This document shows, piece by piece, positions 3,774-22,478 of a stretch of 34,232 bases of DNA (position 1 is the first letter of the stretch; every line of letters begins with the position of its first letter). This stretch comes from an uncultured Acidimicrobiaceae bacterium (GTDB lineage Bacteria > Actinomycetota > Acidimicrobiia > Acidimicrobiales > MedAcidi-G1), in contig CAJXIS010000001.1 of the NCBI GenBank assembly GCA_913054115.1, forward strand, positions 1 through 34,232, given 5' to 3'. Made by a program: the position numbers and the translations under genes. The notes under the pieces were generated by a model. That model had not been told where the DNA came from. It saw only the letters and a list, made by a program, of their open reading frames with translations, and did no database searches.

Positions 3774-3800
3774 TAGGACAGTAGCACAATATGTGTTCAA
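3774..3800. promoter_or_regulatory. Operator O1 of the 27-bp family: TAGGACA-GTAGCACAATATG-TGTTCAA
   Basis: AT-rich island in the 62-bp divergent gap between the Rieske start (3754, -) and the crotonase start (3817, +). It fits TAGrACA-N13-TGTwCwA, which is shared with six other gaps. Confidence 0.65.
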
Positions 3801-3816
3801 CTGATAGACCAGTGAC

Positions 3817-4692
3817 ATGACCCCACCCCCGGTTCCCGACGGCCTACCCCACGAGATCCACGGCATCGACCTCATGGCGGACGAGTTGCACGCTTCGATC
3901 CTCGGCGACACGCTCACCGTCACGATCGACCGACCGGAGAAGCGCAACGCCATCACCAGCGACGGCTACCACGGCATAAAGCGGGCGGCGATGATCGTGG
4001 CCGACGAACCCCGACTCCAGTTCCTGGTGATCACCGGCACCGGAGACGCCTTCTGCGCCGGCGGCGACATGGGCAGGTCTGCACCGAGCCGCCGATGGGA
4101 CATGTTCACCGAGTCGGCCGACGGGGTCCCGTTCGAGACCCTCGGCCGCATTCCGAAGATCGTGGTGTGCAAGATCAACGGCATCGCCATGGGCGGCGGG
4201 ATGGTGATGAGCATGTACGCCGACCTCGTCATCGCCTCCGACGAGGCCCGGATCCGTATCCCCGATCTCACCCGTGGCGTCTACGAGGCGTTCATCGCGG
4301 CCCGGCTGCCCCAGAGAGTGGGCACCCTGCGGGCCAATCACCTGATGTACGAAAGCGAATGGCTCACTCCGCAACAGGCCCTCGAGATCGGCCTCGTGGG
4401 CCGTGTGGTGCCCCACGCCGATCTCGACGCCGAGACCGAGGCCATGATCGAACGGGTGCGCAAGACCGGCCCGGTCGCACGGGCCCTGATGAAGCGGCAG
4501 ATGTGGCAGTCCCTGCCACCCGTGGACGTCGGTGGCTACTGGGAACGCATCGGCACACCCGAGACGGCAGAGGCATGGACTGCATTTCTCGACAAGAGGG
4601 ATCCGCAGTGGCCCGGAACCGACGATCCGCCCAACCCGCTCAAGAGGTCTCGCCGAGCGACATGGATGCCGACGACAGACGACACGCAATGA
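3817..4692 (+). CDS. Enoyl-CoA hydratase/isomerase (crotonase) family protein
   Basis: 291-aa ORF with LTVTIDRPEKRNAI and ITGTGDAFCAGGDM (crotonase oxyanion-hole region). An alternative start is the Met at 3874. Confidence 0.88.
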   Translation: MTPPPVPDGLPHEIHGIDLMADELHASILGDTLTVTIDRPEKRNAITSDGYHGIKRAAMIVADEPRLQFLVITGTGDAFCAGGDMGRSAPSRRWDMFTESADGVPFETLGRIPKIVVCKINGIAMGGGMVMSMYADLVIASDEARIRIPDLTRGVYEAFIAARLPQRVGTLRANHLMYESEWLTPQQALEIGLVGRVVPHADLDAETEAMIERVRKTGPVARALMKRQMWQSLPPVDVGGYWERIGTPETAEAWTAFLDKRDPQWPGTDDPPNPLKRSRRATWMPTTDDTQ

Positions 4693-4781
4693 TGACGGTG
4701 ATGCTCCGCGGTGGAGCGCCGTTCGCCTCCGGCACCTGATCCCCGCGTCGGCGAAAATCCAACCTGCCCCTGCTGGGCCGG

Positions 4782-5300
4782 TCAGGCCAGCTCCAGGCCG
4801 AGACGCATCACGTCCTGCACCGCATCTCCACCGAGAACCTCGCTCCGCCTGCGATGGATGAGCCATGCGCCGTCGCTCTTCACGCACTCGTAGTGGTTCA
4901 GGGCCAGTCGAAACAGGACGAAGTCCTCCCCCCGCCGTTCGTAGATGCGGGTGTACCCCGTGGCCCTGGCATCGGATCCATCGACCACCACGACGACAGG
5001 CCCAGGCGTATGCGCCGAGTTCGGGAGCAGCGCCTGGTGGGGGGCCGAGAGCACCATCGCCCCGACCGCTTCGCGTCCCTCCATACGCAGCACCCGACCA
5101 CGGTCGCCGTCGATGCCCGTCGTGGCTGCACCCACCTCGTACACGGTGTCCTCGGTGAACAGGGCCATCGCCGCCTCGGCCTCGCCGGCATCGACGGCCA
5201 GCCCGTAGCGGACGATCAGGCGGTGCACCGCGAGCTCGTCCTCGGCGCTGGTCAATCGTGTTTCCAGCTCGGCAAGTCGCTCCTCGACAGACATGGTCAT
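4782..5300 (-). CDS. SnoaL-like / NTF2-fold protein
   Basis: 172 aa. The N-terminus ERLAELETRLTSAEDELAVHRLIVRYGLAVDAGEAEAAMALFTEDTVYE is typical of SnoaL_4/NTF2-like proteins. ATGA overlap with the upstream LLM gene (5297-5300). Confidence 0.72.
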   Translation of the reverse strand: MTMSVEERLAELETRLTSAEDELAVHRLIVRYGLAVDAGEAEAAMALFTEDTVYEVGAATTGIDGDRGRVLRMEGREAVGAMVLSAPHQALLPNSAHTPGPVVVVVDGSDARATGYTRIYERRGEDFVLFRLALNHYECVKSDGAWLIHRRRSEVLGGDAVQDVMRLGLELA

Positions 5301-6247
5301 GTGGTTCTCCTGGGACGGTCTCGACGGGAATTGACGGCGTCGATGACATCGACGCCGAAACGTGCATAGCTCTCGAGCGCGTGATCGACGCTCCTGGCCG
5401 CCACGCCGACGGTCGACCAGCCGACGCCCTCGTCGATCAGCTCACCGAGCGCATCGACATAGGCCCCTGGCTCGAAGCGTGTGGTACCGGGGACGCCCCC
5501 GGCGAACGGTGCACACATCACGTCGATGGAATCCGTACGTGCGGCCTTGTCCATCTCCTCCGCCAGATGGGCGAGCATCCCCCGCAGGTCATCGATCGAT
5601 TCGAGATGGGCGGTCCGGCGACGGTCGCCGAGTCGACGGGGGTTCGGCATCGGCATCCAACCCTGGGCCCAGGCGGCGACGCGGCGGCGGGTGAGCCTCG
5701 AGTTGCCGCCAATCCACACCGGCGGGTGAGGCGACTGTGCCGGCGTGGGGAGGCTGCGGATGCCCTCGGCGGTGAAGTGGCGCCCGCTGTGGTCCACCGG
5801 TTCACCGGTCCACGCCTTGCGCATCACCTCGAACGATTCGTCGAACAGGTCGTTGCGATCCTCGAACTCGACCCCGAGTGCCCGATACTCGGCTTCGAGG
5901 TAGCCGGTCCCCGCCCCGATGATGAGCCGACCGCCGGACAGCGCGTCAAGTGTCGCCGCTGTCTTCGCCAACAGGAACGGGTTGCGATAGGGGACGACGG
6001 TGAGATTCGTCAGCAGCCGGAGTCTCGAGGTGACCGTTGCGGCCACGGTGAGCCCGACGAAGGGGTCGATTGCGTCATGGCCACCACTGGTGCGCCACGC
6101 TTCGGAGGGGGCAGGGTGTTCGGTCAACCAGACGGCCGAAAAGCCTGCATCCTCGGCAGCGATCGCAAGGCGGCTGATCGCATCGACCGAGATGAACTCC
6201 GGATCGGGCGGCGCGGAGTTGATGGGGATGCCGACGGCAAACCTCAT
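5297..6247 (-). CDS. LLM-class (luciferase-like) flavin/F420-dependent oxidoreductase
   Basis: Start trimmed to MRFAVGIPINS (ATG 6247), which overlaps the upstream stop by 1 nt (TGATG). Luciferase-like features: AVWLTEHP, GRLIIGAGTGYLEAEYRALGV, PPVWIGGNS. Confidence 0.82.
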   Translation of the reverse strand: MRFAVGIPINSAPPDPEFISVDAISRLAIAAEDAGFSAVWLTEHPAPSEAWRTSGGHDAIDPFVGLTVAATVTSRLRLLTNLTVVPYRNPFLLAKTAATLDALSGGRLIIGAGTGYLEAEYRALGVEFEDRNDLFDESFEVMRKAWTGEPVDHSGRHFTAEGIRSLPTPAQSPHPPVWIGGNSRLTRRRVAAWAQGWMPMPNPRRLGDRRRTAHLESIDDLRGMLAHLAEEMDKAARTDSIDVMCAPFAGGVPGTTRFEPGAYVDALGELIDEGVGWSTVGVAARSVDHALESYARFGVDVIDAVNSRRDRPRRTT

Positions 6248-7326
6248 CACCACTCCCCCATGGATGCGGCCCGGTCGCGCTGGCGGTCCGGTCCCCCCAG
6301 GAATGCCCGGTCGAACATGATGCGCTTGTACCAGAGATGCACGTTCGACTCCCACGTGTAGCCCATCGCCCCGTGGAGGTCGACGCAGGCTCTGGCGATG
6401 GCCATCGAGCAATCGGTGATGTGTGCGTGCGCCATGGCCGCTACCCGGGAGGCCGCAGTGGGGATGTGATCGAGCGCGTGCGCGGCGTACCACCACAATG
6501 CCCGGGTCGGCTCCAACCCGGTGACCATGTTGGCGAGTTCGTGCTTGATGCCCTGGAACTGGGTCAGTTTCGTCTCGAACTGCTCTCGTTCGTCCAGGTA
6601 GTCGATGGTCTCCCTCACCAACCGGTGGGCGCAGCCGAATGCGTCGGCCGCGAGCAGGACCAGCCCCGCATCGAAGACCCGGGGTGCCGCGGCGACACCT
6701 TCCGGAAGCTCCGAGACGGGAGTGTCATCGAACACCACCGTGTCCAGTCGCCGGGTCCGGTCGATGCCGTCGAACGACGTCACCTCGACGCCGTCACCGG
6801 GAGCGGAGACGACGAAGAGGCGGCTCCCGGCGCCGCCCACGACGATGACATCCGCATGGTTGCCGTGGAGAACGTGCGCTTTGGTGCCGGACAATCTGCC
6901 GTCACGGACTTCGACGGACCAGTGGTCGGGTTCCCAGACATCGCCGGGCTCGGCCCATGCAATCGTCGCGATCGCCTCTCCGCTCGCCAGGGCCGGAAGC
7001 CAGCGGGCGCGCTGGTCGTGATCGCCGCCGAGCAGGATCGCCAACGATCCGAGCTGGTGTCCCAGGAGTGGGCCGGGCATCGCCCCTTCTCCGGCGACCT
7101 CCGCCATCAGGGCGGCGTCGAGGAGTTCGAGTCCGGAACCACCGTGCTCCTCGGGTAGGCACAGACCGACGAGTCCCAGCCCGGCCAACATCGACCAGAG
7201 CCCGGGGTCGTGTGCCGTTTCGGCTTCGAGCCCCTCACGAACGACTGCGGGAGGATGTTCGTTCGCGAGCAGGGCGCGCACCGCGTCCTGCATCATCAAC
7301 TGCTCGTCGGTGAGCCCGAAGTCCAT
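6247..7326 (-). CDS. Acyl-CoA dehydrogenase family protein
   Basis: Start trimmed to MDFGLTDEQLMMQDAVRALL (ATG 7326; 1-nt TGATG overlap with the upstream gene). C-terminal ACAD helices: FETKLTQFQGIKHELANM, LHGAMGYTWESNVHLWYKR. Confidence 0.82.
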   Translation of the reverse strand: MDFGLTDEQLMMQDAVRALLANEHPPAVVREGLEAETAHDPGLWSMLAGLGLVGLCLPEEHGGSGLELLDAALMAEVAGEGAMPGPLLGHQLGSLAILLGGDHDQRARWLPALASGEAIATIAWAEPGDVWEPDHWSVEVRDGRLSGTKAHVLHGNHADVIVVGGAGSRLFVVSAPGDGVEVTSFDGIDRTRRLDTVVFDDTPVSELPEGVAAAPRVFDAGLVLLAADAFGCAHRLVRETIDYLDEREQFETKLTQFQGIKHELANMVTGLEPTRALWWYAAHALDHIPTAASRVAAMAHAHITDCSMAIARACVDLHGAMGYTWESNVHLWYKRIMFDRAFLGGPDRQRDRAASMGEW

Positions 7327-8711
7327 CAGCGATTGAACCGCTGGAGGCCTGCGGCCTCCAGCGCGAGCTCCTTTGCGTGGTTCATGTCGTAGTGCTTCAT
7401 GGTGATGAGCTTCTGGGCGTACAGGCCGCCCCCCGAGATCGAGACCGTGACCTGCCACCAGCCACCGAAATCACTCGCGGTGATGTCTCGCACCGCGTGG
7501 AAGAGACGGGTCCGGTACTCCCCGGAGACACCCTCCATGGTCCGCATGTACTTTTCGACCAGTGGCCGCGTCTCCGGGTTCGCCAGGTCGCCAGGCAGCG
7601 GCGCAGTCACGATCGAGCCGCCTCCTATGTCGTGGATCAGGCTCAGCATTCGCGGAAACTCCCGGGCCCCGAAGAACTTCGCTGCGTTGGTGTACAACTC
7701 GCTCGGCGTGACCCAGCCCTCCGGCGTGGTCGTGACGTTCGTGATCGCGGCTTCGAGCCCGGATCGGACAAGCGTTGCGTGGATCACCATTTCGGCGATC
7801 TTGTCCTTGACGTGGCCGATCCGCTCCGTCCCGTTCGCTTCAGCGAGCAATCTGGCGAGACCGATGAGGAGGTCGTAGTTCTTCGCCATGTGGGCGATGC
7901 CTCCGGCGCGCTGCCAGAGGCCGAGCGAGTGGGCGAAGGTCGCCGAGTGTTCGACCTCGCCGTTGAGGAAGATCCGCTCGTTCGGCACGAACACGTCCTC
8001 GAACACCACGAATCCCTCGGGCATGGATCGGGTCTTGCTGTACGGGTGTTCTTCCAACTCCTCGAGCCGGGGTGAGATCGAGGCATTGAGAACGGTGACG
8101 CCCGGCGCGTTGACCGGAATGGCACACGCGATCGCCCACGGCTCTTCGCCGGTCTTCATCTTCTTGGTTGGCATGACCACCATCTCGTGGGTGATCGCGG
8201 CCGCTGAGATGTGCAACTTTGCGCCCCGGATCACCACACCGTCGGGTCGCTGTTCGACGACACGGGTGAACACGTCCGGATCGTCCTGGTCGGCAATGGA
8301 GCGGTCGCGGTGTCCCTTTGCATCGGTGAGCGTCTGCACACACCTGACGTCGTTCTCCTGGCACCATTCGATGTATGCCTCCATGCGATGTCCATAGGGG
8401 ACTTCGGTCTCGCCGATCCGGCCCGCCGCCGTGCGCAGTGCGGCCAGGCTCTCGAGCGTCGTGACCAGCGACGTGTCCCACTTCGTGAGCAGGTCGAGCC
8501 GCGCCCGGAGCTCTTCGGACGAGCGGGGTGCGGTGTAGGCGGCAGCGAATGCATCCGGGCCCTGCTCGACGTATGCGTCGTAGCCGGCCGCGATGAGGTC
8601 GACGGAGCCCTGCATCCGGGGGTGGACCGTCACGTCCTCGACGAGTTCGCCGTCGTAGAAGATCCGGCGTCCGTCGCGTAGCGACGCTCGGTAATCGTCT
8701 CCGGTCATCAT
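7326..8711 (-). CDS. HpaB / 4-hydroxybutyryl-CoA dehydratase (AbfD)-family protein
   Basis: 461 aa. N-terminus MMTGDDYRASLRDGRRIFYDGELVEDVTVHP and the core TDAKGHRDRSIADQDDPDVFTRVVEQRPDGVVIRGAKLHISAA match the 4-hydroxyphenylacetate 3-hydroxylase / AbfD fold family. The subfamily cannot be decided by eye. Confidence 0.75.
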   Translation of the reverse strand: MMTGDDYRASLRDGRRIFYDGELVEDVTVHPRMQGSVDLIAAGYDAYVEQGPDAFAAAYTAPRSSEELRARLDLLTKWDTSLVTTLESLAALRTAAGRIGETEVPYGHRMEAYIEWCQENDVRCVQTLTDAKGHRDRSIADQDDPDVFTRVVEQRPDGVVIRGAKLHISAAAITHEMVVMPTKKMKTGEEPWAIACAIPVNAPGVTVLNASISPRLEELEEHPYSKTRSMPEGFVVFEDVFVPNERIFLNGEVEHSATFAHSLGLWQRAGGIAHMAKNYDLLIGLARLLAEANGTERIGHVKDKIAEMVIHATLVRSGLEAAITNVTTTPEGWVTPSELYTNAAKFFGAREFPRMLSLIHDIGGGSIVTAPLPGDLANPETRPLVEKYMRTMEGVSGEYRTRLFHAVRDITASDFGGWWQVTVSISGGGLYAQKLITMKHYDMNHAKELALEAAGLQRFNR

Positions 8712-9934
8712 GAAACTGATCTCCCTGTAGGGGTGCGCAGGTCACGGGGCAGGCCCAGTGCCCGTTCTCCGATGATGTTGCGCTGGATGTTGGGTGCTCC
8801 TCCGGCTATCGCGGAGGCATGGGCGAAGAGGTAGTTCATGGCCCATCCGCCCGGTTCATTGGCCCTGCCGAGATCGACCGACGCACCGCCGGGGGCTCGC
8901 AGGCCCTCGTCGGCGCCGGCCAGATCGAGACCGAACTGGGTGAGTCGCTTCGCCATCGTCGAGGCATGGAGCTTCTTCACCGCTCCGGCGAGGTCGGCGT
9001 TGGGATCGCTCCTGCCCCGGGCAGCATTGGTCAGGGAACGGAATCGGCTGAAGCGTGCAGAGAGCAGGTCGGACTCGATGTCGATCAGCGTGCGGCGAAT
9101 GCCGGGATGTTCGATCGCCGGGGCTCCACCGATCTTGCGGGTGCGAGCGAGTTCGAGGACGCTCTCGAACAGCTGTTGGAGGCGGAACCCCATGAGGTTG
9201 CGCTCGTTGACCAGCAGATCGCGTGACACCTCCCAGCCGCTGCCCCGCTCGCCGACCTGGTAGCGCACCGATGTGCGGGCGCCGGTGAGAAAGACCTCGG
9301 CGAACTCTGGTTGACCGGTCATTGCCATGATCGTCTGGACTTCGACGCCGGGCTGGTCCATGGGGACCAGGAGGAACGTGATGCCGCGGTGGCGCGGTGC
9401 GTCTGGCTCGGTGCGGAAGAGGCCGAACATCCAGTCGGCCCGATCGGCATCCGAAGTCCAGATCTTGTGACCGTGGATGACCCAGTCCTCGCCGTCGAGT
9501 TCGGCTCGGCTCCTCAGGGACGCCAGGTCGCTGCCTGCGGTCGGTTCGCTGTAGCCCTGACACCAGGTGATGTCGCCCATGAGCGTCGGGGCGATGAGTT
9601 CCCGCCGTTGGTCCTCGGTGCCGTTGCGCAGCAGGGTCGGCACGACCATGTCGGGTCCCTGGCCGACGATGCCAAGCGGTGCCCGCGCTTCGGTGAATGC
9701 GCGCTCGATGACGTCGTCGGCGATCGGGTCGATCGGCCGCTCCGATCCGCCGTAGACGACGGGTACGCCCCTGTAGAGGTAGCCATGTTCGATCGCGAGG
9801 CTCCGGAACAGACGGATCTCATCGTCAGGGACATGGCGGTCACGACGTTCGGCGGGCCAGTGCTCGTCCAGGAAGAGCCCAACCTGATCACGCAGCGTGA
9901 CGTGATGCGTTCCCAACTCGAGGTCCACATCCAC
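8708..9934 (-). CDS. Acyl-CoA dehydrogenase
   Basis: 408 aa with GYSEPTAGSDLASLRSRAELDGEDWVIHGHKIWTS and C-terminal AIAGGAPNIQRNIIGERALGLPRD. ATGA overlap with the downstream gene (8708-8711). Confidence 0.88.
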   Translation of the reverse strand: MDVDLELGTHHVTLRDQVGLFLDEHWPAERRDRHVPDDEIRLFRSLAIEHGYLYRGVPVVYGGSERPIDPIADDVIERAFTEARAPLGIVGQGPDMVVPTLLRNGTEDQRRELIAPTLMGDITWCQGYSEPTAGSDLASLRSRAELDGEDWVIHGHKIWTSDADRADWMFGLFRTEPDAPRHRGITFLLVPMDQPGVEVQTIMAMTGQPEFAEVFLTGARTSVRYQVGERGSGWEVSRDLLVNERNLMGFRLQQLFESVLELARTRKIGGAPAIEHPGIRRTLIDIESDLLSARFSRFRSLTNAARGRSDPNADLAGAVKKLHASTMAKRLTQFGLDLAGADEGLRAPGGASVDLGRANEPGGWAMNYLFAHASAIAGGAPNIQRNIIGERALGLPRDLRTPTGRSVS

Positions 9935-9948
9935 ACTCTAGTTGGGAT

Positions 9949-9975
9949 TAGGACAGAAGTACATATTGTGTACTA
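9949..9975. promoter_or_regulatory. Operator O2: TAGGACA-GAAGTACATATTG-TGTACTA
   Basis: Lies in the divergent gap between the ACAD start (9934, -) and the SnoaL/amidohydrolase operon (+). Aligned with O1 over ~34 bp: 3774-3807 (TAGGACAGTAGCACAATATGTGTTCAACTGATAG) against 9949-9982 (TAGGACAGAAGTACATATTGTGTACTATTGATAC), with several mismatches. Confidence 0.65.
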
Positions 9976-10013
9976 TTGATACGGACCGTGATGCCGGAGG
10001 CTACAGTCGGGTC

Positions 10014-10418
10014 GTGGTCCCCGCCGACGATCCTCTTCCAAGCGCCGACGTCGTCGAGATCGAACACCTCTATCCCCGCTACTGCCATGCGGTCGATGCA
10101 GGTGACGGCCAGGCATTCGCGGCGTTGTTCGCCGCCGACGGTGTGCTCGATGTGGCGGGCACCCGCCATTCCGGGACCGCAGCACTCGCCGAGTTCGCTC
10201 TCAGCGTCCCGCTCGCGCTCCCCGGCATTCGCCACACGGCTTCGAATGTGGTCATCGGCACGTCCGAGGGCGGCGCCATGGGTACTGCCGATCTCATCGT
10301 CCAGGTCGTAGGCCCCGATGGGCCGACGATGATCACCTCCGGTCGCTACACCGACCTCATCGTCCAAATCGACGGGGCGTGGCGGTTCGCCACCCGCACC
10401 TTCACCCCGGACGCCTGA
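10014..10418 (+). CDS. SnoaL-like / NTF2-fold protein (start uncertain)
   Basis: The ORF 9942..10418 covers operator O2, so the start was moved to the in-frame GTG at 10014 (GGAGG lies 13 nt upstream). Sequence IEHLYPRYCHAVDAGDGQAFAALFAADGVLD...GAWRFATRTFTPD is SnoaL-like. Confidence 0.6.
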   Translation: MVPADDPLPSADVVEIEHLYPRYCHAVDAGDGQAFAALFAADGVLDVAGTRHSGTAALAEFALSVPLALPGIRHTASNVVIGTSEGGAMGTADLIVQVVGPDGPTMITSGRYTDLIVQIDGAWRFATRTFTPDA

Positions 10419-11287: not shown

Positions 11288-11296
11288 CCGGTCGGG

Positions 11297-12244: not shown

Positions 12245-12268
12245 CGACGCGATCCCCTTGTGTAACAT

Positions 12269-12295
12269 CAGAACAGAATCTGATTTATTGTACAC
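12269..12295. promoter_or_regulatory. Operator O3: CAGAACA-GAATCTGATTTAT-TGTACAC
   Basis: AT-rich island in the divergent gap between the KshA-like start (12244, -) and the SDR start (12355, +). It also contains an internal 6-bp inverted repeat, ATCAGA(12267-12272)/TCTGAT(12279-12284). Confidence 0.55.
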
Positions 12296-12354
12296 CTCTC
12301 GCCGGGCACTGTCGCCCGGACGACCAGACCGTCCAGAGTAGGAACCACCCAGCC

Positions 12355-13157: not shown

Positions 13158-14381
13158 TCAGCGGAGTGTGTAGTTGATCGGCAGGTGTTGCGGCCCGCTC
13201 ACCAGGTTCGACGCCAGATGCACACACGGGCCCGCTGCCTCGACGTGAACCAGTTTCGGAATGAGCAGTTCGTAGAACTTGCGGACCTCGAGGCGGGCCA
13301 GATGGACCCCGAGGCAGAAGTGGCGCCCGAATCCGAACGCTATGTGCTGATCTGCGTTGGGTCGCGACACGACGAAGGCGGAGGGGTCGTCGAAGACGAG
13401 TTCGTCGCGATTTGCCGAGGGGTACGACAGCAGCACGCGGTCCCCCTCTGCGATCGGGACGCCTGAGAGTTCATAGTCACGCTGCGCCGTGCGAATGAAG
13501 TGCTTGACGGGGCTGACCCACCGGATGATCTCGTCGGTCGCGTTGGGGAGCAGGGCGGGGTCCCGACGGAGCGCGTCCAGCTCGTCGGGGTGACCGGCAA
13601 GTGCCTCCATCCCCCCGGCCAGCGCACTGCTGGTGGTGTCATGGCCGGCGGTCGCGACGATCAGGTAGAGCCCGAACGCAGCCAGCACATCGACGGGTTC
13701 GCCATCGACCGTCGCATTGGCGATCAGGCTGGCGAGATCGTCCGTCGGCGCAGCGCGGCGGTTGTCGGCCAGCACCTGGAAGTATTCGAAGAAGCCGATC
13801 ATCGCCTCCTGGGCGTCATCGGTGGACTCTGGATCCTGTGCGGCGAAGAGCGTCTGGGTGAGGCTGAGCATGAGGTCGAAGTCGACATCGGGCACGCCGA
13901 AGAGGGTCATGATGACCTTGAGCGGATAGTGCAGTGCGACGTCCTGGGCGAAATCACACGAACCCCCATGGGCCGCCATGATCTCGATCGCCTCCCTCGC
14001 ACGCTCGGCGATCGCCTGTTCGAGCCGCCGGATGCTCCCGGGTAGGAACCACTTGTTGACGATGAGCCGGTGGGCCAGATGCTCGGCTCCATCCATTTCG
14101 ACCAGCGTCTTCATCTGGGGTGCTGCATGGTCGGGAATCATCACGGCGTGCGCCTGCGACACGGTGCAGGCAGGAGAGTTGGTGAACAGCTCGGGCTGGC
14201 GCTCGACCTCCAGCACCTCCGCATGGCGCAGGACAGCCCAGACCGGCTCGATCCCCGTGGCAGTGAGTCCGACGACCGCCGCCTTCTGGCGCAGCGGCGT
14301 GACGGCGGCATGCCACGCGGTCGGATCGGCAAAGGGCGCCGACGAGGTGAAGATGTCGGTGTCGGTTGTGGTTGGAAGCAT
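13158..14381 (-). CDS. Cytochrome P450
   Basis: 407 aa. Heme loop FGFGRHFCLGVHLARLE, I-helix AGHDTTS, and EIIRW (ExxR). Strong SD (AAGGAGAG) upstream of ATG 14381. Confidence 0.92.
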   Translation of the reverse strand: MLPTTTDTDIFTSSAPFADPTAWHAAVTPLRQKAAVVGLTATGIEPVWAVLRHAEVLEVERQPELFTNSPACTVSQAHAVMIPDHAAPQMKTLVEMDGAEHLAHRLIVNKWFLPGSIRRLEQAIAERAREAIEIMAAHGGSCDFAQDVALHYPLKVIMTLFGVPDVDFDLMLSLTQTLFAAQDPESTDDAQEAMIGFFEYFQVLADNRRAAPTDDLASLIANATVDGEPVDVLAAFGLYLIVATAGHDTTSSALAGGMEALAGHPDELDALRRDPALLPNATDEIIRWVSPVKHFIRTAQRDYELSGVPIAEGDRVLLSYPSANRDELVFDDPSAFVVSRPNADQHIAFGFGRHFCLGVHLARLEVRKFYELLIPKLVHVEAAGPCVHLASNLVSGPQHLPINYTLR

Positions 14382-14444
14382 GGGAAGACTCTCCTTGCGT
14401 CGTCGCCTCTTGTTGAGGCTGCCGGTCGGTGATGAACCCCGACC

Positions 14445-14951
14445 TCAGGTACCCCGGGCGAACGACATGGGTTCAAGGTATTCCTCGAACCCCGCCAGGC
14501 CCATCTCGCGTCCGACCCCCGACTGCTTGAAGCCGCCGAACGGCATGTCGGGGCCGTACCAGACCCCACCGTTGATGGACATCGTCCCTGTGCGAATCCG
14601 ACGACCGACGGCCGTGGCGCGCTCGTGATCGGAGCCGACAACGGCCCCGGAGAGGCCGAAGATCGAGTCGTTGGCGATGCGAACCGCGTCGTCTACGTCG
14701 TCATAGGGGATCGCGACCAGCACCGGCCCGAAGATCTCCTCACGGGCGACGGCCATCGAATTGTCGACATCGGCCAGCAGGGTCGGCTCGTGGTACCAGC
14801 CGAGCGGCAGATGCGCCGGCCGACCGCCACCGGTCGTGATCCTGGCGCCGGCGGCCACGCCGGCCGAGACGTAGCCCTCGACTCGCGAGCGCTGTCGTTC
14901 GTTGATGAGGGGGCCCTGGAGCACCGAGGGGTCGTCCGGAGACACGGTCAC
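14445..14951 (-). pseudogene. Aldehyde dehydrogenase, C-terminal third only (remnant or stand-alone fragment)
   Basis: 168 aa with GPLINERQRSRVEGYV..., EEIFGPVL and PFGGFKQSGVGRE, which correspond to ALDH residues after ~320. The NAD-binding Rossmann part and the catalytic Cys/Glu region are absent. The upstream space is fully occupied by an intact SDR whose stop is 2 nt before this GTG. Confidence 0.75.
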
Positions 14952-14953
14952 GA

Positions 14954-15694
14954 TCAGATCCTCGTGATCTGTCCGCCGTCAACGGCGAGCACATGACCGG
15001 TGACCCAGGCGGCGTCGTCGGAGAGGAGGAACGAGAGTGCTCCAGCCATGTCGTCCACCTGACCCATGCGCTTGAGCGCGAGGCCTGCGAGGAGGTGCTT
15101 CCGAAACTCCTCGGGCACGATCGTTCGGGTCGCTTCGGTGTCTGTCGGGCCGGGCGCGATCGCGTTGACTCGGATGCCCTGGCCGCCGAGTTCGTGGGCG
15201 AGGCTGACCGTGAGGGCGTTGATCCCGGCCTTGGCCACGCCGTAGAAGCCGCTCGGCATCCAGGCTGCGGTCGATGACTGGTTGACGATGACACCACCGC
15301 CTCCGGCTGCCAGTGCGGGAACGCACGATCGGGTGCAGCGCAGTGCGCCCCAGAGGTTCACGCTCATGAAATGGTCGAGGTATTCGTAGGGCACGGTCGT
15401 GAGCCCGTCGAGTTGCATGGTCTTGTAGATCGCGGCGTTGTTCACCAGGAAGTCGAGCCTTCCGAACGCATCGACAGCGGCTCTTGCCATCGCGTCGGTA
15501 CTTACCGGATCGGACACGTCGGTCGTCACCGCTATCGCCTGTTCGCCGATCTCCGCTGCGACCCTTGCGCCGCCTCCGGCGTCGATGTCGGCGATGACGA
15601 CGCTGGCTCCGTCGTCGGCCAACCGTTTTGCGTACGCCTCGCCGATACCGCCTCCGGCACCGGTGATGATTGCGACGCGGTCACTGAATCGCAT
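14954..15694 (-). CDS. Short-chain dehydrogenase/reductase (SDR)
   Basis: Start trimmed to MRFSDRVAIITGAGGGIG (ATG 15694). NNAA and YGVAKAG (YxxxK) are present. Confidence 0.9.
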   Translation of the reverse strand: MRFSDRVAIITGAGGGIGEAYAKRLADDGASVVIADIDAGGGARVAAEIGEQAIAVTTDVSDPVSTDAMARAAVDAFGRLDFLVNNAAIYKTMQLDGLTTVPYEYLDHFMSVNLWGALRCTRSCVPALAAGGGGVIVNQSSTAAWMPSGFYGVAKAGINALTVSLAHELGGQGIRVNAIAPGPTDTEATRTIVPEEFRKHLLAGLALKRMGQVDDMAGALSFLLSDDAAWVTGHVLAVDGGQITRI

Positions 15695-15735
15695 GGCTGC
15701 GGACCCTTCTTTCCCGCCTGGCTGGGCGTGGTCGG

Positions 15736-17022
15736 TCAGTCTTGGAACGCTGCACTGACAGCGCCGTCGTCGATCGCCCTGTCCCAACCACGAATTTTTT
15801 CACCGCTGCGATCGAGCGTGTTGCGGGCCCGGATCGATACGTCGTGGTCGCCGGCCACCGCCCGGAGTGCTCCCACTGTCGATGCCTCGCGGGGGAGGTG
15901 GGCGAAGGGGTCGAACGAGTACCAGCGCATGGCGTTGAGGTGGGTGATCTTGTCGATGTCGTCGTCGGGCACGTCGAACTGCTCGAACTGGGCCGTCAAC
16001 ACCTCTGGATCGTGCGGCCAGTTGGAGTCGCTGTGGGGATAGTCGCACTCCCAGGACAGCGAGTCGATCCCGATCTGATGGCGCAACTCGATGCCGACCG
16101 GATCGGAGATGAAGCAGGTGAGGAACCGCTCGCGGAACACCTCCGAGGGGAGCTGGTTGCCGAAGTCCTGACCTGTCCATTCGTGGTGCATCTCGTAGGT
16201 GCGGTCGATGCGGTCGAGGAAGTAGGGGACCCAGCCACTGCCGCCTTCGGAGAGGGCGATGCGCAGATCGGGATGGCGCTTCAACGCCGGGCTCCAGAGG
16301 AGGTCCGCTGCGGCGGAGCAGATGTTCATCGGCTGCAGCGTGATCATGACGTCGGGGGGAGAGTCGGGCGCGGGGATGGCGAGTTTGCCTGACGAGCCCA
16401 GGTGGATCGAAAGGACCGTCGAGGTGTCGACGAGCGCCTCCCACAACGGGTTCCAGAACTCGTTGTGGAAACTCGGATAACCCAGGGTGTGGGGGTTCTC
16501 GGTGAAGGTGAGGGAGTGACACCCCTTCTCGGCGACTCGGCGGACCTCGGCTGCGCACTTCTCTGCGTCCCAGATCACGGGCAGCGCCATCGGGATGAAC
16601 CTGCCGGGATGGGCGCCGCACCATTCGTCGATGTGCCAGTCGTTGTACGCCCGCACGAGGGCATGTCCGAACTCTTCGTCCTCGACGGCGAAGAGGCGCG
16701 CCGCGAATCCAGGGAACGAGGGGAAGTTCATCTCGGCCAGAATCCCGCCGGCGTTCATGTCCTTGACCCGCTCGTCGACCTGCCAGCATCCGGGTCGGAT
16801 TTCGTCGAGGGACTGGGGTTCGAGGCCGTACTCGCTCTTGGGCCGACCGGCCACGGCGTTGAGCGCCACGTTCGGGACGGTGACCTTGCCGAACCGCCAG
16901 ACATCGGCCCCGTCCCTGGCCTTCACGATCCGGGGGGCCCGGTCGGCGAAGCGGTCCGGCAGGTGGCCGTCGAAGAGGTCGGGCGGTTCGATCACATGGT
17001 CGTCGACCGAGATCAGGATCAT
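15736..17022 (-). CDS. Amidohydrolase-2 family protein (large form)
   Basis: Start trimmed to MILISVDDHVIEPPDLF (ATG 17022), the characteristic N-terminus with a metal-binding DxH. 428 aa. Confidence 0.82.
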   Translation of the reverse strand: MILISVDDHVIEPPDLFDGHLPDRFADRAPRIVKARDGADVWRFGKVTVPNVALNAVAGRPKSEYGLEPQSLDEIRPGCWQVDERVKDMNAGGILAEMNFPSFPGFAARLFAVEDEEFGHALVRAYNDWHIDEWCGAHPGRFIPMALPVIWDAEKCAAEVRRVAEKGCHSLTFTENPHTLGYPSFHNEFWNPLWEALVDTSTVLSIHLGSSGKLAIPAPDSPPDVMITLQPMNICSAAADLLWSPALKRHPDLRIALSEGGSGWVPYFLDRIDRTYEMHHEWTGQDFGNQLPSEVFRERFLTCFISDPVGIELRHQIGIDSLSWECDYPHSDSNWPHDPEVLTAQFEQFDVPDDDIDKITHLNAMRWYSFDPFAHLPREASTVGALRAVAGDHDVSIRARNTLDRSGEKIRGWDRAIDDGAVSAAFQD

Positions 17023-17095
17023 CTCATCGGTGCGAATGGTGGGTCCCCCGGATGCTCGGTTCGACGGCTCGGCGGAATCCAAGTTACTCCACCAG

Positions 17096-17122
17096 TAGAA
17101 CAAATGCACGCGAAACGTACTG
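17096..17122. promoter_or_regulatory. Operator O4: TAGAACA-AATGCACGCGAAA-CGTACTG (weakest right arm)
   Basis: Divergent gap between the amidohydrolase (17022, -) and the SDR (17150, +). The left arm plus AAATGC is shared with O7 (TAGACAAATGCGC). Confidence 0.5.
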
Positions 17123-17149
17123 TTGTGTCATATCCGCTACTCTCAAGAC

Positions 17150-17911: not shown

Positions 17912-17948
17912 CGGCGCGGCACGCTCCTTCAGGGCGGGTCGCCGAGGC

Positions 17949-18794
17949 TCAGTCTTCGCTCCCGCTGTCGCTCTTGTGCTCACCCATCCGTTCGCGGGGC
18001 GTCGCGCCCTGCTCCATCAGTTCCTTGAGGAACTTCCGAAACTCGGGAGTGTGCGAGACGACGGCCTGCAGATCGTTGGATGCCTGCTGGTGGGTGCGGA
18101 AGCCCATCGTCTCCCATGCCCGGGTGAGGTTCATCTTCGCTGCCTGGAGGGTGACCGTCGGCGCCCGTGCGATGGTCGCCGCCATCTCTTCGACCGTCGA
18201 CTCGAGTTCATCGGCCGGCACCACCCGGTTGATCAGCCCATGATCGAGCGCCTCGGCCGCATCGACCTTCTTTGCGGTGTAGATGTACTCGGCTGCCCGC
18301 TTGTAGTTCATGTAGACCCACGGCTCGAACACCGTCTCGAGGCCGGGGAGCCCGAAACCGGGGACCAGTGGCATCTGGAACCAGGCGTCCTCCGAGCAGA
18401 TGGTGATGTCGGGCAGCAGTCCCCAGGTGGTGCCGCCGCCGATGCAGTACCCATGGACCTGGGCGATCGTCGGCTTCGGGAACTCCCAGAGTTTCAGAAC
18501 CGGCCAGAGGAACAGTCGTGCAGGACCACGCCAGGTTCCGCCACTGGCCGCTCGTTCGGCGATGAACGAGGGGTACTGGCCACTCGGGTCATGGCCCGAA
18601 CAGAAGCCCTTGCCGTTGGCCTTGATGATGACGACCTTGATGTCGTAGTCGTACTGGGCGTCATCGAGGCAGTCGTTGACGCTCCAGACCATGCCCTCGG
18701 TCTGCACGTTGGCCTTCTCGGGCTTGTTCAGAATTATCCGGGCGATCGGCCCGTCCTTTTCGTAGATGACGTCGTCCATCTCGCGGCGCTCCAT
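17949..18794 (-). CDS. Enoyl-CoA hydratase/isomerase (crotonase) family protein
   Basis: 281 aa with IARIILNKPEKANV and KANGKGFCSGHD. SD AAAGGAGC lies upstream of ATG 18794. Confidence 0.88.
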   Translation of the reverse strand: MERREMDDVIYEKDGPIARIILNKPEKANVQTEGMVWSVNDCLDDAQYDYDIKVVIIKANGKGFCSGHDPSGQYPSFIAERAASGGTWRGPARLFLWPVLKLWEFPKPTIAQVHGYCIGGGTTWGLLPDITICSEDAWFQMPLVPGFGLPGLETVFEPWVYMNYKRAAEYIYTAKKVDAAEALDHGLINRVVPADELESTVEEMAATIARAPTVTLQAAKMNLTRAWETMGFRTHQQASNDLQAVVSHTPEFRKFLKELMEQGATPRERMGEHKSDSGSED

Positions 18795-18815
18795 CGGAGG
18801 CTCCTTTCGGCTCTG

Positions 18816-19049
18816 TCAGCCCTGTTCGATTGTGGCGATGATCGTGCCGACCGGATACTCCTCACCGGTTTCGGCCACGATCCTGAGGACCCCGTCGGCG
18901 GGGCTGTCGATTTCCATCTCGACCTTGTCTGTCTCGAGTAGATAGATCGGCTGGTCCCGGTGCACGACCCCACCGTCCTGCACGAGCCATTCGATGATGG
19001 TGCCGAATTCGACGGCATCACCGGTCTTGGGGATTCGAACGTCGATCAT
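18816..19049 (-). CDS. Stand-alone lipoyl/biotinyl-attachment domain protein (77 aa)
   Basis: MIDVRIPKTGDAVEFGTIIEWLVQDGGVVHRDQPIYLLETDKVEMEIDSPADGVLRIV is a classical E2-type lipoyl domain with the ETDK acceptor lysine. No catalytic or E3-binding domain follows. Confidence 0.85.
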   Translation of the reverse strand: MIDVRIPKTGDAVEFGTIIEWLVQDGGVVHRDQPIYLLETDKVEMEIDSPADGVLRIVAETGEEYPVGTIIATIEQG

Positions 19050-19121
19050 TCGGAGTCCTCGGCATCGGCGGTCGAGACGCCCTCGGTGCTCACGTCCATC
19101 GAACCGGGTCGCAGAAGCGTA

Positions 19122-19148
19122 TGGAACAAGTACACATATGTTGTTCTA
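19122..19148. promoter_or_regulatory. Operator O5: TGGAACA-AGTACACATATGT-TGTTCTA
   Basis: Lies 73 nt upstream of the lipoyl-protein start and directly downstream of the SnoaL stop (19174). It is the only copy not in a divergent gap. It contains the 8-bp palindrome ACATATGT. Confidence 0.62.
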
Positions 19149-19173
19149 TCATATCACACTCGGAATCGCGCCT

Positions 19174-19560
19174 TCAGTCGGACTGAGGTTGCACCGGCTT
19201 GGCCATGCGGATCTCGCGGCGGGCAAACCGCCACCCGTCCCCTTCCCGGATGAGGGTGTCGGCGTAGAGCCCCATGCTCGACAACTCCCGGTCGAGGTTG
19301 AAGAACACGAAGTTCGACAGGGCGGTCGCCTGGTCGCCATCGATGTCGATGCGAACAGAGGTGTTGAGATGGAGTCCCTGCGGCGCGTTGGAGATGAACC
19401 CGGTCAGCGCCTCGAATCCCGACCAGTCGCGGCGAAAGGCGACCATCACGCCGTCGTCGCCGAAGAGCCGTGCCCAGTCGTCGTAGCGGCATTCATCCGC
19501 AGCGAGGCAGTACTCGGCCAGGAGTCGGCGAACGCCTTCGATGTCATCGGTCGTGGTCAT
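19174..19560 (-). CDS. SnoaL-like / NTF2-fold protein
   Basis: 128 aa. IEGVRRLLAEYCLAADECRYDDWARLFGDDGVM...GDGWRFARREI is SnoaL_4-like. Confidence 0.72.
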   Translation of the reverse strand: MTTTDDIEGVRRLLAEYCLAADECRYDDWARLFGDDGVMVAFRRDWSGFEALTGFISNAPQGLHLNTSVRIDIDGDQATALSNFVFFNLDRELSSMGLYADTLIREGDGWRFARREIRMAKPVQPQSD

Positions 19561-19596
19561 GGGTGTCCTCCCAGGTGTCGGCTGGCGCGAGCCAGG

Positions 19597-20835
19597 TCAG
19601 GTGATGGCCCCCAGGGCCTTGAGCTCGGTGATCCGGTCCCAGTCGAGACCGGCCTCGAGCAGGAGGAGTTCTGTGTCCTGGGCGAACTCCGGCGCCCGCT
19701 TGAGCGTTGGCGGCTCCCGGTCGAAGAGCACCGGGCTGCCAACCAGTTCGCGCTCCTTGCCGGCGCCGTCCGTGATCCCCACGATGTAGCCGTTCGGTCG
19801 GGCCTGAGGATCGTTGGTCAGATCGACCGTGTTCTGGACGACCGCCCACTGGCCGTCGAGCGTTGCGAGGCGGGCGACCCAATCCGCGAGCGGCGCGGAG
19901 AGGATCCGCTGTCGGATCAACGATCGCGCCTCCTTCGCATTCGCCATGAGCTTCTCTGTCGTATTGAATCGGTCGTCGTCGATGAGGTGTTCGAGTTCGA
20001 GGTGTGCGCAGGTGTCGGCCCAGTACTTCCCTGGCTGCAGCATGAACAGGGTGAGCCATCGGTCGTCGCTGGTGCGAAACATCCCGGCCAGCGGGTTGCG
20101 AGCGTCATCGAGCAGCATGTCGCTGCGCGGCACCCACCATGGCTCGCCGGAGATGAGTGCGACGTTGGTGGCGACTCCATTGGCCCACATCGCGACTCCG
20201 AGCAGGGAAACGTCGATCTCGCTCGTCTCTCCTGTTCGTTCGCGCCGCAGAAGCGCAGCGGCGATCCCACCGGCGATCGTCATGCCGCCCATGCTGTCGC
20301 CGAACGCTGCTCCCGGCTGGCCGATCACACCGTCGATATCGGGTGGCGTGCAGGTGCTGGCCGCTCCGCCTCGACACCAGAACGCCGTGAAGTCGTAGCC
20401 GCCGGAGTCACGGTCGGGGCCCTCATCACCGAAGGCGGACCCGCGGACGTAGATGATGGACGGGTTGACGGCGCGGATGTCGTCGACCTCGATTCCGAGA
20501 CGGCTTCGGGCGTTCGGGAGGAAGTTGGTGAGGAACACGTCGCAATCGCGGGCGAGGTCGAGCAGGATTTCGCGCCCCTCCGCCATCTCGAGATCGAGTC
20601 CGATGCTGCGCTTGCCGCGGTTCGCGTGCTCCATCAACGGGTTGAAGTCGGCCGACATCTTCGCGGTGCCGAGATACCGGATGCCCCGCTGACCGTCGCC
20701 GGTGCGCGCATGCTCGACCTTGATGACGTCGGCACCCCAGTCGGCGAGCACGGCGCCCGCCGCCGGCACGAAGGTGTACTGCGCAACCTCGAGCACCTTG
20801 ATGCCCTCCATCGGTCGTGCTGCCATGCTGCTCAC
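19597..20835 (-). CDS. Family III CoA-transferase (CaiB/BaiF / alpha-methylacyl-CoA racemase family)
   Basis: MEGIKVLEVAQYTFVPAAGAVLADWGADVIKVEHARTGDGQRG is the family III N-terminal signature. The start could be Met1, Met4 or Met9. Confidence 0.88.
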   Translation of the reverse strand: MSSMAARPMEGIKVLEVAQYTFVPAAGAVLADWGADVIKVEHARTGDGQRGIRYLGTAKMSADFNPLMEHANRGKRSIGLDLEMAEGREILLDLARDCDVFLTNFLPNARSRLGIEVDDIRAVNPSIIYVRGSAFGDEGPDRDSGGYDFTAFWCRGGAASTCTPPDIDGVIGQPGAAFGDSMGGMTIAGGIAAALLRRERTGETSEIDVSLLGVAMWANGVATNVALISGEPWWVPRSDMLLDDARNPLAGMFRTSDDRWLTLFMLQPGKYWADTCAHLELEHLIDDDRFNTTEKLMANAKEARSLIRQRILSAPLADWVARLATLDGQWAVVQNTVDLTNDPQARPNGYIVGITDGAGKERELVGSPVLFDREPPTLKRAPEFAQDTELLLLEAGLDWDRITELKALGAIT

Positions 20836-20851
20836 CTCTCACCGGCCGTGA

Positions 20852-20878
20852 TAGAACATATATGCATGACTTGTTCTA
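20852..20878. promoter_or_regulatory. Operator O6: TAGAACA-TATATGCATGACT-TGTTCTA (perfect; arms extend to the 9-bp GATAGAACA/TGTTCTATC, 20850-20880)
   Basis: Divergent gap between the CoA-transferase (20835, -) and TetR (20973, +). This is the best palindrome of the family. Confidence 0.72.
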
Positions 20879-20972
20879 TCGTCTCAGACGGGCGTTGGCA
20901 AACAGCGGCCGATCGCCAGGGGATGCACGGCATGCTTGAGCACCCTCGATCACAGATGGGAAGGAAGTCGCA

Positions 20973-21581
20973 ATGACAGAGACGGCCGTCGACACGTCAG
21001 TCACCGACATGCGGAGACGGATCATCGCTGCGGGCTACCGGATGCTGCTCCAATTCGGTGAGAACAAGACCAGCATGGGCGACATCGCCGACGCAGCCGG
21101 CGTCTCACGTGGCACCGTCTACCGGTACTTCGACGACCGCGACCAGCTCCTCGAAGCTGTCATGGACCATTCAGCACACAGATACTGGGATGCCATCGAC
21201 GCCAGCATCACCGACGACATGTCGCTCGGCGACAAGATCGAATCACGGGTGCAGACCAGCATCCGATTCTCCAGCGGGCTGATCGATCAGCTCGCGTCGG
21301 GTTCGGTCGAGATGTATCGCCGGATGATCACCGGCGACCTCCACCGCAGTTCGATTCTGTCCGCGGAACGCACCGTGCCCATGCTCGAGTTGGCCCGTGA
21401 GCGTGGAGAGTTTCGCGCCGACCTCGACATCGCCCTTGCAGCGGACTGGATCTCGCGCATCATCGTCAGCATCATCTGGCTGCCTGTCTCGACGGTGATC
21501 GACATGAGCGACGAGAAGGTCGCCGCCGCCTACACCCGTGATCTCATCATGGGCGGAATCGGCGCCCCTGGGCACACCTGA
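20973..21581 (+). CDS. TetR/AcrR-family transcriptional regulator
   Basis: N-terminal HTH RRRIIAAGYRMLLQFGENKTSMGDIADAAGVSRGTVYRYFDDRDQLL. SD GGAAGGAAG lies upstream. Confidence 0.9.
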   Translation: MTETAVDTSVTDMRRRIIAAGYRMLLQFGENKTSMGDIADAAGVSRGTVYRYFDDRDQLLEAVMDHSAHRYWDAIDASITDDMSLGDKIESRVQTSIRFSSGLIDQLASGSVEMYRRMITGDLHRSSILSAERTVPMLELARERGEFRADLDIALAADWISRIIVSIIWLPVSTVIDMSDEKVAAAYTRDLIMGGIGAPGHT

Positions 21582-21582
21582 C

Positions 21583-22350
21583 TCAACCGCCCTTCTCGGC
21601 GAAGCGGGCGATGTTCGCCCGGAGTTCGGGCGTGTCGAATGACCGGTACTCGGCGCTCACGCAGAACTCGACGACCCCGCTGGCCGCTCTCGCCAGATGT
21701 TGGTTGAGCGCCCGCTTCGTGTCCTGTACCGCCTGCGGCGGTGATTTCGCGAGGCGGTGGGCGAGTTCGAGTGCGGCTCCGAAGCACTCACCATCCGGCA
21801 CCACCCGGTTGGCCAGACCGAGGCGGTGCGCCTCCTTGGCCGGGATGCGGTCGCCGGTGAGGATGTACTCCTTGGCGGCCAGGAGGCTCATTGCCAGAGG
21901 CCAGGTGATCGCGCCGCCGTCGCCGGCCACCAGTCCGATGGGCACATGGGGATCGGCGAGGTAGGCGCTCGCATCCATGATGACGATGTCGCTCATCATC
22001 GCCAGGCTGCAGCCGAGTCCGACGGCGGGACCGTTCACGGCGGCCACCAGCGGGAGCCGAAATCCGATCATGTCGCGCATGATCCGTCGCGACTCGTCCA
22101 GTACCCGCTCGCGCAGAACCACGTCGTCGACCATCTTCTGCAGGAGTTCCATGTCGCCACCTGCGGTGAAGGCCCGGCCTTCGCCGGTGATCACGACCGC
22201 ACGGGCGTCGTGGTCTGCGTCGAGCTCGGACCAGATGTCGGCCAGGGCCGTATGGAGGACCTCGTCGACAGCGTTGAGCGCATCGGGTCGGTTCAGGCGG
22301 ACGATCCGCACGGGACCATCCTCTGACACGGTGAGCACGTTCTGGGTCAT
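21583..22350 (-). CDS. Enoyl-CoA hydratase/isomerase (crotonase) family protein
   Basis: Start trimmed to MTQNVLTVSEDGPVRIVRLNRPDALNAV (ATG 22350). ITGEGRAFTAGGDM is present. Confidence 0.88.
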   Translation of the reverse strand: MTQNVLTVSEDGPVRIVRLNRPDALNAVDEVLHTALADIWSELDADHDARAVVITGEGRAFTAGGDMELLQKMVDDVVLRERVLDESRRIMRDMIGFRLPLVAAVNGPAVGLGCSLAMMSDIVIMDASAYLADPHVPIGLVAGDGGAITWPLAMSLLAAKEYILTGDRIPAKEAHRLGLANRVVPDGECFGAALELAHRLAKSPPQAVQDTKRALNQHLARAASGVVEFCVSAEYRSFDTPELRANIARFAEKGG

Positions 22351-22451
22351 GTCGGTCTCCCTGGATCGGCCGTGGAATGTGGGGGGTCCTGCCGACGTCG
22401 TTGGTTGCGCTTGCGGACCCTGGGCCCGCATTCCGACGCTGCAGCACCACA

Positions 22452-22478
22452 ATAGACAAATGCGCAGTATTTGTACTA
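22452..22478. promoter_or_regulatory. Operator O7: ATAGACA-AATGCGCAGTATT-TGTACTA
   Basis: Divergent gap between the crotonase (22350, -) and the P450 (22519, +). The left arm is shifted or degenerate by one base. Confidence 0.55.

Follow-up and report, generated by a model that had tools for sequence, protein, structure and literature searches.

The cluster and its seven intergenic elements

The 34,232-nt stretch of Acidimicrobiaceae DNA analysed here, referred to as the window, carries a 29-kb catabolic gene cluster of the lipid/steroid type, in whose intergenic gaps one AT-rich inverted repeat recurs seven times (O1 to O7). The cluster encodes a fused E1 dehydrogenase and two Rieske oxygenases, one of them KshA-like; its other oxidation genes are those of two P450s, an HpaB-type monooxygenase, an F420/luciferase-like monooxygenase (LLM) oxidoreductase and a PhyH protein. 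The CoA genes specify several acyl-CoA dehydrogenases (one fused), four enoyl-CoA hydratases, a family-III CoA-transferase and a CasI/FadD17-like CoA ligase, and are accompanied by genes for three short-chain dehydrogenases/reductases (SDRs), two amidohydrolases, two SnoaL_4 proteins and a 77-aa lipoyl carrier. The sole regulator gene is that of a TetR-family protein of 202 aa (20973..21581, plus strand; recognition helix VSRGTVYRYF), the presumed binder of the repeats.

A sequence-only reading of the window had described the repeats as 27-mers of the form TAGrACA-N13-TGTwCTA, the only conspicuous AT-rich islands of the region, all with the same strand polarity and six of them in divergent gaps. 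All seven were recovered at the positions and with the arms reported, AC(A)-N13-(T/C)GT being invariant. For TAGAACA-N13-TGTTCTA with at most three mismatches, the window has five matches where 0.16 are expected, and none of 100 dinucleotide shuffles reaches five; full arms are needed, as the three-base core ACA-N13-YGT alone is not significant in the window (33 against 24 expected). The AT-rich islands were nearly as exclusive as described: the window has 65.7% GC, and seven of its eight 40-nt stretches with at most 40% GC are the sites, but the eighth, at 30775-30822, is unrelated to them. Six sites do lie in divergent gaps, O5 being the exception. A 36-column matrix, built from distant loci only and with window and ortholog sequences excluded, recovers exactly O1-O7 in the window, with scores of 20-37 against 15.3 for the best of 50 shuffles, and has no hits in the right-hand 12 kb of the window or in coding sequence. 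The common polarity holds as well: every site scores higher on the plus strand (20-37, against 11-26 on the minus strand; approximately p=0.016 if orientation were random), and the stronger N13 pair lies on the same strand at all seven, whatever the direction of the neighbouring gene.

Four half-sites around one dyad

The N13 palindrome exists, but it is only a part of the element. The full element is ~31-35 bp long, rather than 27, and comprises four half-sites, GAACA-N3-kwACA-N5-TGTwC-N3-yGTnC, of which GAACA occupies positions 3-7, kwACA 11-15, TGTwC 21-25 and yGTnC 29-33; the spacing is 8-10-8, with half-site centres at -13, -5, +5 and +13 relative to a dyad at position 18. The palindrome of the sequence-only reading is the pair formed by the outer-left and inner-right half-sites. 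A second N13 palindrome, of the inner-left and outer-right half-sites, is offset by 8 bp, and a minus-strand matrix match is found at +8 in six of the seven window sites. The oriented logo of the distant loci, aTAGAACAnTTTTACAnnAtnTGTTCTATTGTnCA, is palindromic across ~30 bp and has its best symmetry centre at position 18, not 14. Alignment of 23 Acidimicrobiia sites gives tnGAACAAww..gCA..A.TTGTwCTATcgT, where the arms extend inward (ACAA/TTGT) and a central CA (positions 14-15) and the right flank TAT-CGT are also conserved. Of the 115 unique N13 sites from the distant loci, 69 carry CA at positions 14-15 when read in one orientation; in another 36 the centre contains CG, positions 13-15 being CGT, ACG or GCG. 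Both the conserved central CA and the right-flank extensions noticed earlier arise because the predicted operator has four half-sites with its dyad at position 18; the extensions are real, but they are the fourth half-site and not an appendage of the palindrome.

Spacing counts within the seven window sites have the same periodicities. Inverted AC[AG]/[TC]GT pairs peak at N13 (eight pairs), with four each at N3, N5 and N21, while direct pairs peak at N5, an 8-bp period (eight pairs). A separate pentamer-level count, noisy from codon periodicity, peaks at N5 and N13, without the outer N21 pair.

Sites and presumed regulated genes

All seven sites are registered on the plus strand (half-sites are capitalised below), and each has a leftward gene start on its left. 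O1 (3774..3808; ta GGACA gta GCACA atatg TGTTC aac TGATA ga; score 33.2) separates a Rieske oxygenase gene on the minus strand from an enoyl-CoA hydratase gene on the plus strand; the unit to its left (313..3787, minus), presumed from its position to be regulated, encodes the Rieske oxygenase alpha subunit and the fused E1 alpha-beta dehydrogenase. O2 (9949..9983; ta GGACA gaa GTACA tattg TGTAC tat TGATA cg; score 34.7) is separated by 15 nt from the GTG codon (9934) that starts a leftward, presumably regulated operon (4782..9934, minus) for an acyl-CoA dehydrogenase, the HpaB-type monooxygenase, a second acyl-CoA dehydrogenase, the F420/LLM oxidoreductase and a SnoaL_4 protein, genes that also adjoin the motif in two other loci (L005 and L006). 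To the right of O2 stands an amidohydrolase gene (plus) whose frame is open for 91 codons (10106-10379) upstream of the first ATG, GTG or TTG (10379) and whose Pfam match begins at profile position 74; its start is uncertain, and a frameshift or an unusual start is possible.

The sequence-only reading placed O3 at 12269-12295, the second of its N13 pairs; a register 8 bp further left (12261..12295; tg TAACA tca GAACA gaatc TGATT tat TGTAC ac) suits it better, with scores of 31.0 on the plus strand at 12261 and 25.8 on the minus strand at 12269. O3 lies between the KshA-like Rieske gene (minus) and an SDR gene (plus). O4 (17096..17130; ta GAACA aat GCACG cgaaa CGTAC tgt TGTGT ca; score 24.3) lies between an amidohydrolase gene (minus; start near 17040 by ortholog alignment) and an SDR gene (plus), and the unit on its left (13158..17109, minus), likewise presumed to be regulated, holds the genes of an amidohydrolase, an SDR, a truncated aldehyde dehydrogenase and a P450. 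The truncated gene (14445-14951, minus), directly behind the SDR gene at 14954-15787, corresponds to just the C-terminal third of an Rv0768-type aldehyde dehydrogenase (alignment to residues 316-476 of 480) and is a truncated gene or pseudogene inside the presumed regulon.

O5 (19122..19156; tg GAACA agt ACACA tatgt TGTTC tat CATAT ca; score 33.1) precedes the lipoyl-carrier gene (18816-19049, minus) by 73 nt and follows the stop codon of a SnoaL_4 gene (19174-19560, minus) by 18 nt. The carrier gene was missing from the list of open reading frames (ORFs) used by the sequence-only reading, which had a 100-aa threshold. This stand-alone biotinyl/lipoyl carrier shares the cluster with the fused E1 alpha-beta 2-oxoacid-dehydrogenase-like protein (313-2334, minus; 673 aa), and no E2 catalytic or E3 gene was seen alongside them in the cluster.

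O6 (20852..20886; ta GAACA tat ATGCA tgact TGTTC tat CGTCT ca; score 37.4) has perfect 7-bp arms and lies between the CoA-transferase gene (minus; ATG at 20826 with a Shine-Dalgarno sequence, or GTG at 20835) and the TetR gene (plus, 87 nt away), of which it is the putative autoregulatory site. O7 (22452..22486; at AGACA aat GCGCA gtatt TGTAC tat CGTAA ct; score 20.0), which holds a promoter-like match, TAGACA-18-TATCGT, separates an enoyl-CoA hydratase gene (minus) from an operon starting at 22519; this presumed regulated unit (22519..29339, plus) encodes a P450, the CasI/FadD17-like CoA ligase, the fused acyl-CoA dehydrogenase, the PhyH dioxygenase and the product of the following ORF. Four of the seven window sites are separated from the leftward start codon by ~11-25 nt, so that the leftward transcription start sites would have to fall inside or beyond the predicted operators. 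The single regulon of at least 11 units proposed by the sequence-only reading is supported, the element being a probable cluster-specific regulatory site that would link ~13 transcription units.

Conservation in Acidimicrobiia and around distant TetR proteins

Close homologues of the TetR protein, 59-75% identical over most of the query, occur in metagenome-assembled genomes (MAGs) of Acidimicrobiales and Candidatus Poriferisocius. The orthologous loci, ~10 in the genome collection and one (L084) in the metagenome collection, hold the same gene families in shuffled order, and in about six related MAGs the orthologous clusters have the motif in equivalent gaps: upstream of the TetR, SnoaL_4 and acyl-CoA dehydrogenase genes, between the fused acyl-CoA dehydrogenase gene and a P450 or amidohydrolase gene (compare O7), between aldo-keto reductase and ligase genes, and between KshA and SDR genes. 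The site upstream of TetR is kept in three of them (L007, L014 and L084), in L084 in the GC-richer form CAGAACA-N13-TGTACCC. In these related loci the motif stays with the same gene families and was not found beside the unrelated genes flanking the orthologous clusters. One Acidimicrobiales sequence, OY760141.1, has two paralogous TetR-plus-cluster loci (L015 and L016, at 0.36 Mb and 2.41 Mb), both with motif sites.

A genome scan through the recognition-helix peptide SRGT[VL]YRYF retrieved distant TetR proteins that are 28-37% identical to that of the window, homologous over their full length, and keep the peptide. Their hosts are mostly Mycobacterium and Mycolicibacterium, together with Williamsia, Actinomadura and various MAGs. 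In 1.59 Mb around these genes, TAGAACA-Nx-TGTTCTA with at most two mismatches occurs 40 times at x=13, 16 times at x=5 (the inner pair) and 0-6 times at other spacings, the peaks at N13 and N5 being those that a four-block model predicts. A matrix made from Acidimicrobiia sites only finds 220 sites in 1.19 Mb around the distant TetR genes (184 per Mb) and none in shuffles, and at 51 of the 60 distant loci a site falls between -400 and +900 relative to the start of the TetR gene. Counting as noncoding whatever generously extended ORFs do not cover, this 9% of the sequence holds 159 of 214 unique sites, and 30 of the other 55 lie within 200 nt of over-extended ORF starts. The mycobacterial clusters are lipid-type catabolic, with LLM monooxygenase, MaoC, FadD, FadE, EchA, SDR, aldehyde dehydrogenase and DUF427-thioesterase genes. 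Judged from these alignments and counts, the predicted operator architecture is kept around the whole TetR subfamily in Actinomycetota, mycobacteria included. Site polarity is not universal in other lineages and is not conserved relative to the TetR gene in the mycobacterial loci. A second TetR gene, whose product has an MftR-type C-terminal domain, lies a few kb from the homologous TetR gene in mycobacterial clusters (L022, 3321-3953).

The TetR regulator and a flanking repeat

The precomputed annotation assigns the window's TetR protein to PF00440, and NCBIfam TetR-type models match its N-terminus. Its AlphaFold2 model has 10 helices with a mean predicted local distance difference test score of 80, and the 50 Foldseek hits listed are TetR-family matches throughout; an N-terminal TetR helix-turn-helix joined to an all-helical ligand domain makes this, as modelled, a canonical single-domain TetR fold. 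No close solved homologue was found in sequence and fold searches of the PDB. A palindromic site lies in the promoter region of the TetR gene itself (O6) and in six further gaps of the cluster. The NCBIfam KstR model NF033703 gives 26.5 bits against a cut-off of 280 and aligns with the helix-turn-helix region only, at odds with KstR orthology.

Outside the regulatory elements, a direct repeat (30600-30681 and 34152-34232), 81-98% identical, is made up of the 3' portion of a Met-type tRNA and its downstream hairpin. It flanks ~3.5 kb with an unknown ORF and genes for a homocysteine S-methyltransferase, a phosphonoacetaldehyde hydrolase and an IS3 transposase orfB, and the bracketed segment resembles an island inserted at the 3' end of a tRNA; the window itself holds no complete tRNA.

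Discussion

We consider it quite probable that the seven elements are composite operators of the cluster's own TetR protein, each taking more than one dimer, through which ~13 transcription units would be repressed. Several other explanations were weighed. In a GC-rich genome the sites form the AT-rich islands, and a terminator scan touches O4, as one might expect if they were chance look-alikes or transcribed hairpins or terminators; however, the shuffle controls oppose chance, the fixed spacing is conserved over phyla-level distances, 7-bp AT-rich arms with a 13-nt loop would form a feeble hairpin, an Rfam scan of the window gave no family at the sites, and terminator-like matches between 3600 and 22700 number 7 against 6.2 in shuffles, so that this explanation is effectively refuted. 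The elements could also be core promoters, strong, rightward and of the sigma-A type, with TnGAACA as -35 box, TATCGT or TATTGT as -10 box, an 18-nt spacer and an incidental palindromy. Positions 26-31 fit TAnnnT in most sites, positions 2-7 resemble TTGACA, a rightward gene stands to the right of six of the seven window sites, and a consensus scan flags the match at O7, the only promoter-like operator. Yet O5 and six orthologous sites lie in gaps with both neighbours leftward, and in the one-directional gaps of the distant loci the regulated gene is on the left, the wrong side of the oriented site, at 50 of 76 unique sites and on the right at 26. The ~30-bp palindromic logo, moreover, includes inner blocks without a promoter role, the motif is absent from the gaps of unrelated neighbouring genes, and a sigma-70 consensus scan of 3600-22700 is no richer than shuffles (2 against 2.2); taken together, these make a plain promoter improbable. 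Leftward and rightward -10 boxes assigned by eye inside the elements had no consistent register.

A promoter for an alternative sigma factor, of the extracytoplasmic function (ECF) type, would consist of GGAAC, a spacer and then CGT or GTT, and several left arms do read GGAAC(A), with (C/T)GTT or CGT in the right blocks. The distance from AAC to GTT is, however, 15 nt and that to the outer CGT 22 nt, both atypical of ECF promoters; no cluster has sigma or anti-sigma genes, site orientation is independent of gene direction and the logo is palindromic, and we find this explanation very hard to believe. A different question is whether the sites are bound by another regulator encoded elsewhere, for example a KstR-like TetR protein, with the local TetR acting on some other target. 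The arms TAGAAC/GTTCTA equal the KstR half-sites (PMC1995591), and canonical KstR-type sites with an N2 core, TAGAACGTGTTCTA and TAGAACACGTTCTA, occur in other Acidimicrobiia MAG loci (L017 at 6189; L083 at 12509 and 16903). KstR, on the other hand, binds as one dimer to adjacent half-sites, and no half-site pair here is so spaced; in more than 60 loci that differ in gene content, the motif tracks the presence and position of the local TetR's subfamily; and the recognition helix common to these 30%-identical proteins matches the shared half-site. We give an outside regulator little credence. As a separate observation, the KstR type with its N2 core and the four-half-site type of operator coexist in Acidimicrobiia.

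Returning to repression by the local TetR protein, we infer binding, dimer number, repression rather than activation and the nature of the inducer from the arrangement described above. Without inducer, TetR dimers would occupy the operators, and each operator probably takes more than one of them, since a single canonical dimer fits none but the inner half-sites, 10 bp apart; when we tried to pair the half-sites into canonical dimers, the other combinations failed. Most likely, two or three dimers would occupy each operator cooperatively. Bound TetR would block the divergent promoters that the operators overlap or abut, its own promoter included, and thereby silence the ~13 units for the Rieske and P450 oxygenases, acyl-CoA dehydrogenases, hydratases, CoA ligase and transferase, and SDRs. 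The repressor may be freed by a substrate of the pathway or by an intermediate in CoA-thioester form, as the analogy with KstR and FadR suggests.

Some observations weigh against such a model. The half-sites of the best-conserved pair in Acidimicrobiia, outer-left and inner-right, are 18 bp from each other, more than one TetR dimer can span, which leaves the stoichiometry unexplained. The outer blocks in divergent gaps are similar to the -35 and -10 boxes of a sigma-A promoter (TnGAACA, 18 nt, TATCGT), and their conservation may be partly that of a promoter; the element is probably an operator that overlaps promoters. A purely symmetric operator does not require the single polarity of the seven window sites. 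Finally, the confinement of the motif to these clusters is shown for 10 kb on each side only.

Known TetR systems offer partial parallels. As with KstR (Rv3574), a cluster-encoded TetR protein has a site at its own promoter, a palindrome is repeated in many gaps of a lipid/steroid-type regulon, and the half-site words, TAGAAC and GTTCTA, are nearly identical. The KstR motif TAGAAC-N2-GTTCTA is, however, a 14-bp palindrome bound by one dimer (PMC1995591), whereas here there are four half-sites, with AAC and GTT 15 nt apart in the N13 pairs or 7 nt in the inner pair. No window site has the N2 core of the KstR motif, TnnAACnnGTTnnA, the ACA-to-TGT spacings being N13 and N5; the earlier judgement that these are not KstR sites is right, and agrees with the low score of the KstR model. 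The FadR protein of Bacillus halodurans (PDB 5GPC), which controls an acyl-CoA-responsive catabolic regulon, recognises two interleaved inverted repeats of 16 bp, offset by 4 bp and bound by one dimer each (PMC5397183). Its four half-sites, two direct copies on the left and two inverted on the right, resemble ours, and the TetR profile gives weak full-length matches to the FadR group; the interleaved pairs here are nevertheless offset by 8 bp and lie 18 bp centre to centre, beyond one canonical dimer, and the proteins are ~23% identical. The window sites share with QacR and FadR operators the arrangement of four half-sites in two overlapping inverted repeats on one dyad, but not repeats that a dimer can bridge (centres ~10-12 bp apart), as only the inner pair, at 10 bp, is so placed.

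QacR binds the 28-bp palindrome IR1 cooperatively with two dimers (PMC3241653; PMC4482099). A long palindrome (~28 bp for QacR), taking more than one TetR dimer there and probably here as well, is common to both systems, but QacR has a single site, for an efflux pump, with another half-site geometry, and at 12% identity the proteins share the family fold only. The EthR operator of Mycobacterium tuberculosis has 55 bp with direct and inverted repeats and is bound by a cooperative octamer. Here, too, an actinobacterial TetR protein combines direct and inverted repeats and probably needs several dimers, but the EthR operator, termed 'larger, more complex' (PMC4482099), is much longer and serves one locus, rather than being a site repeated across a regulon. 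Mce3R of M. tuberculosis is a TetR-type repressor whose lipid/redox regulon includes genes for LLM monooxygenase and SDRs along with fadE and echA; the protein has 406 aa with a double TetR architecture and binds 25-bp non-palindromic sites (PMC11667970), and we rejected it as a model for a 202-aa single-domain protein with a palindromic site. KstR3 of M. neoaurum was set aside also, its operator not being defined and its gene context being different.

The sequence-only reading had called the architecture distinct and undescribed. Our searches of open-access full text found no description of the motif: TAGAACA/TGTTCTA with TetR and mycobacteria gave only the KstR paper, searches on Acidimicrobiia, sponges and steroids gave nothing on the present cluster, and a search for FdmR literature was unproductive. 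'Undescribed' is plausible but not proven, whereas distinctness has to be qualified: the architecture is not peculiar to this locus but subfamily-wide in Actinomycetota, and composite TetR operators are known from QacR, B. halodurans FadR and EthR. What is new is an uncharacterised and widespread TetR subfamily with a composite four-half-site operator; multi-dimer TetR operators as such are known, and no new category of regulation is involved. We also raise, tentatively and as a possibility that we ourselves doubt, that the SRGTVYRYF subfamily may read an 8-10-8 four-half-site code used by no solved TetR-DNA complex, one needing three dimers or a non-canonical higher oligomer per operator, and that the same code may recur at hundreds of promoters in catabolic clusters for lipids, terpenoids or steroids that are uncharacterised, in hosts ranging from sponge-associated Acidimicrobiia to environmental mycobacteria. 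On this reading, directional assembly on the DNA could account for the one-sided polarity of the sites.

Overall, the 8-10-8 geometry raises a concrete question, the number of TetR dimers that assemble on each site. For an uncultured bacterium of the marine or sponge-type Acidimicrobiia, our analyses provide a testable regulon of ~13 transcription units within 29 kb. For the TetR subfamily across Actinomycetota, which extends to many non-tuberculous mycobacteria with uncharacterised catabolic clusters, they offer a transferable operator model, and the matrix can be used for regulon prediction and for choosing a culturable Mycolicibacterium.

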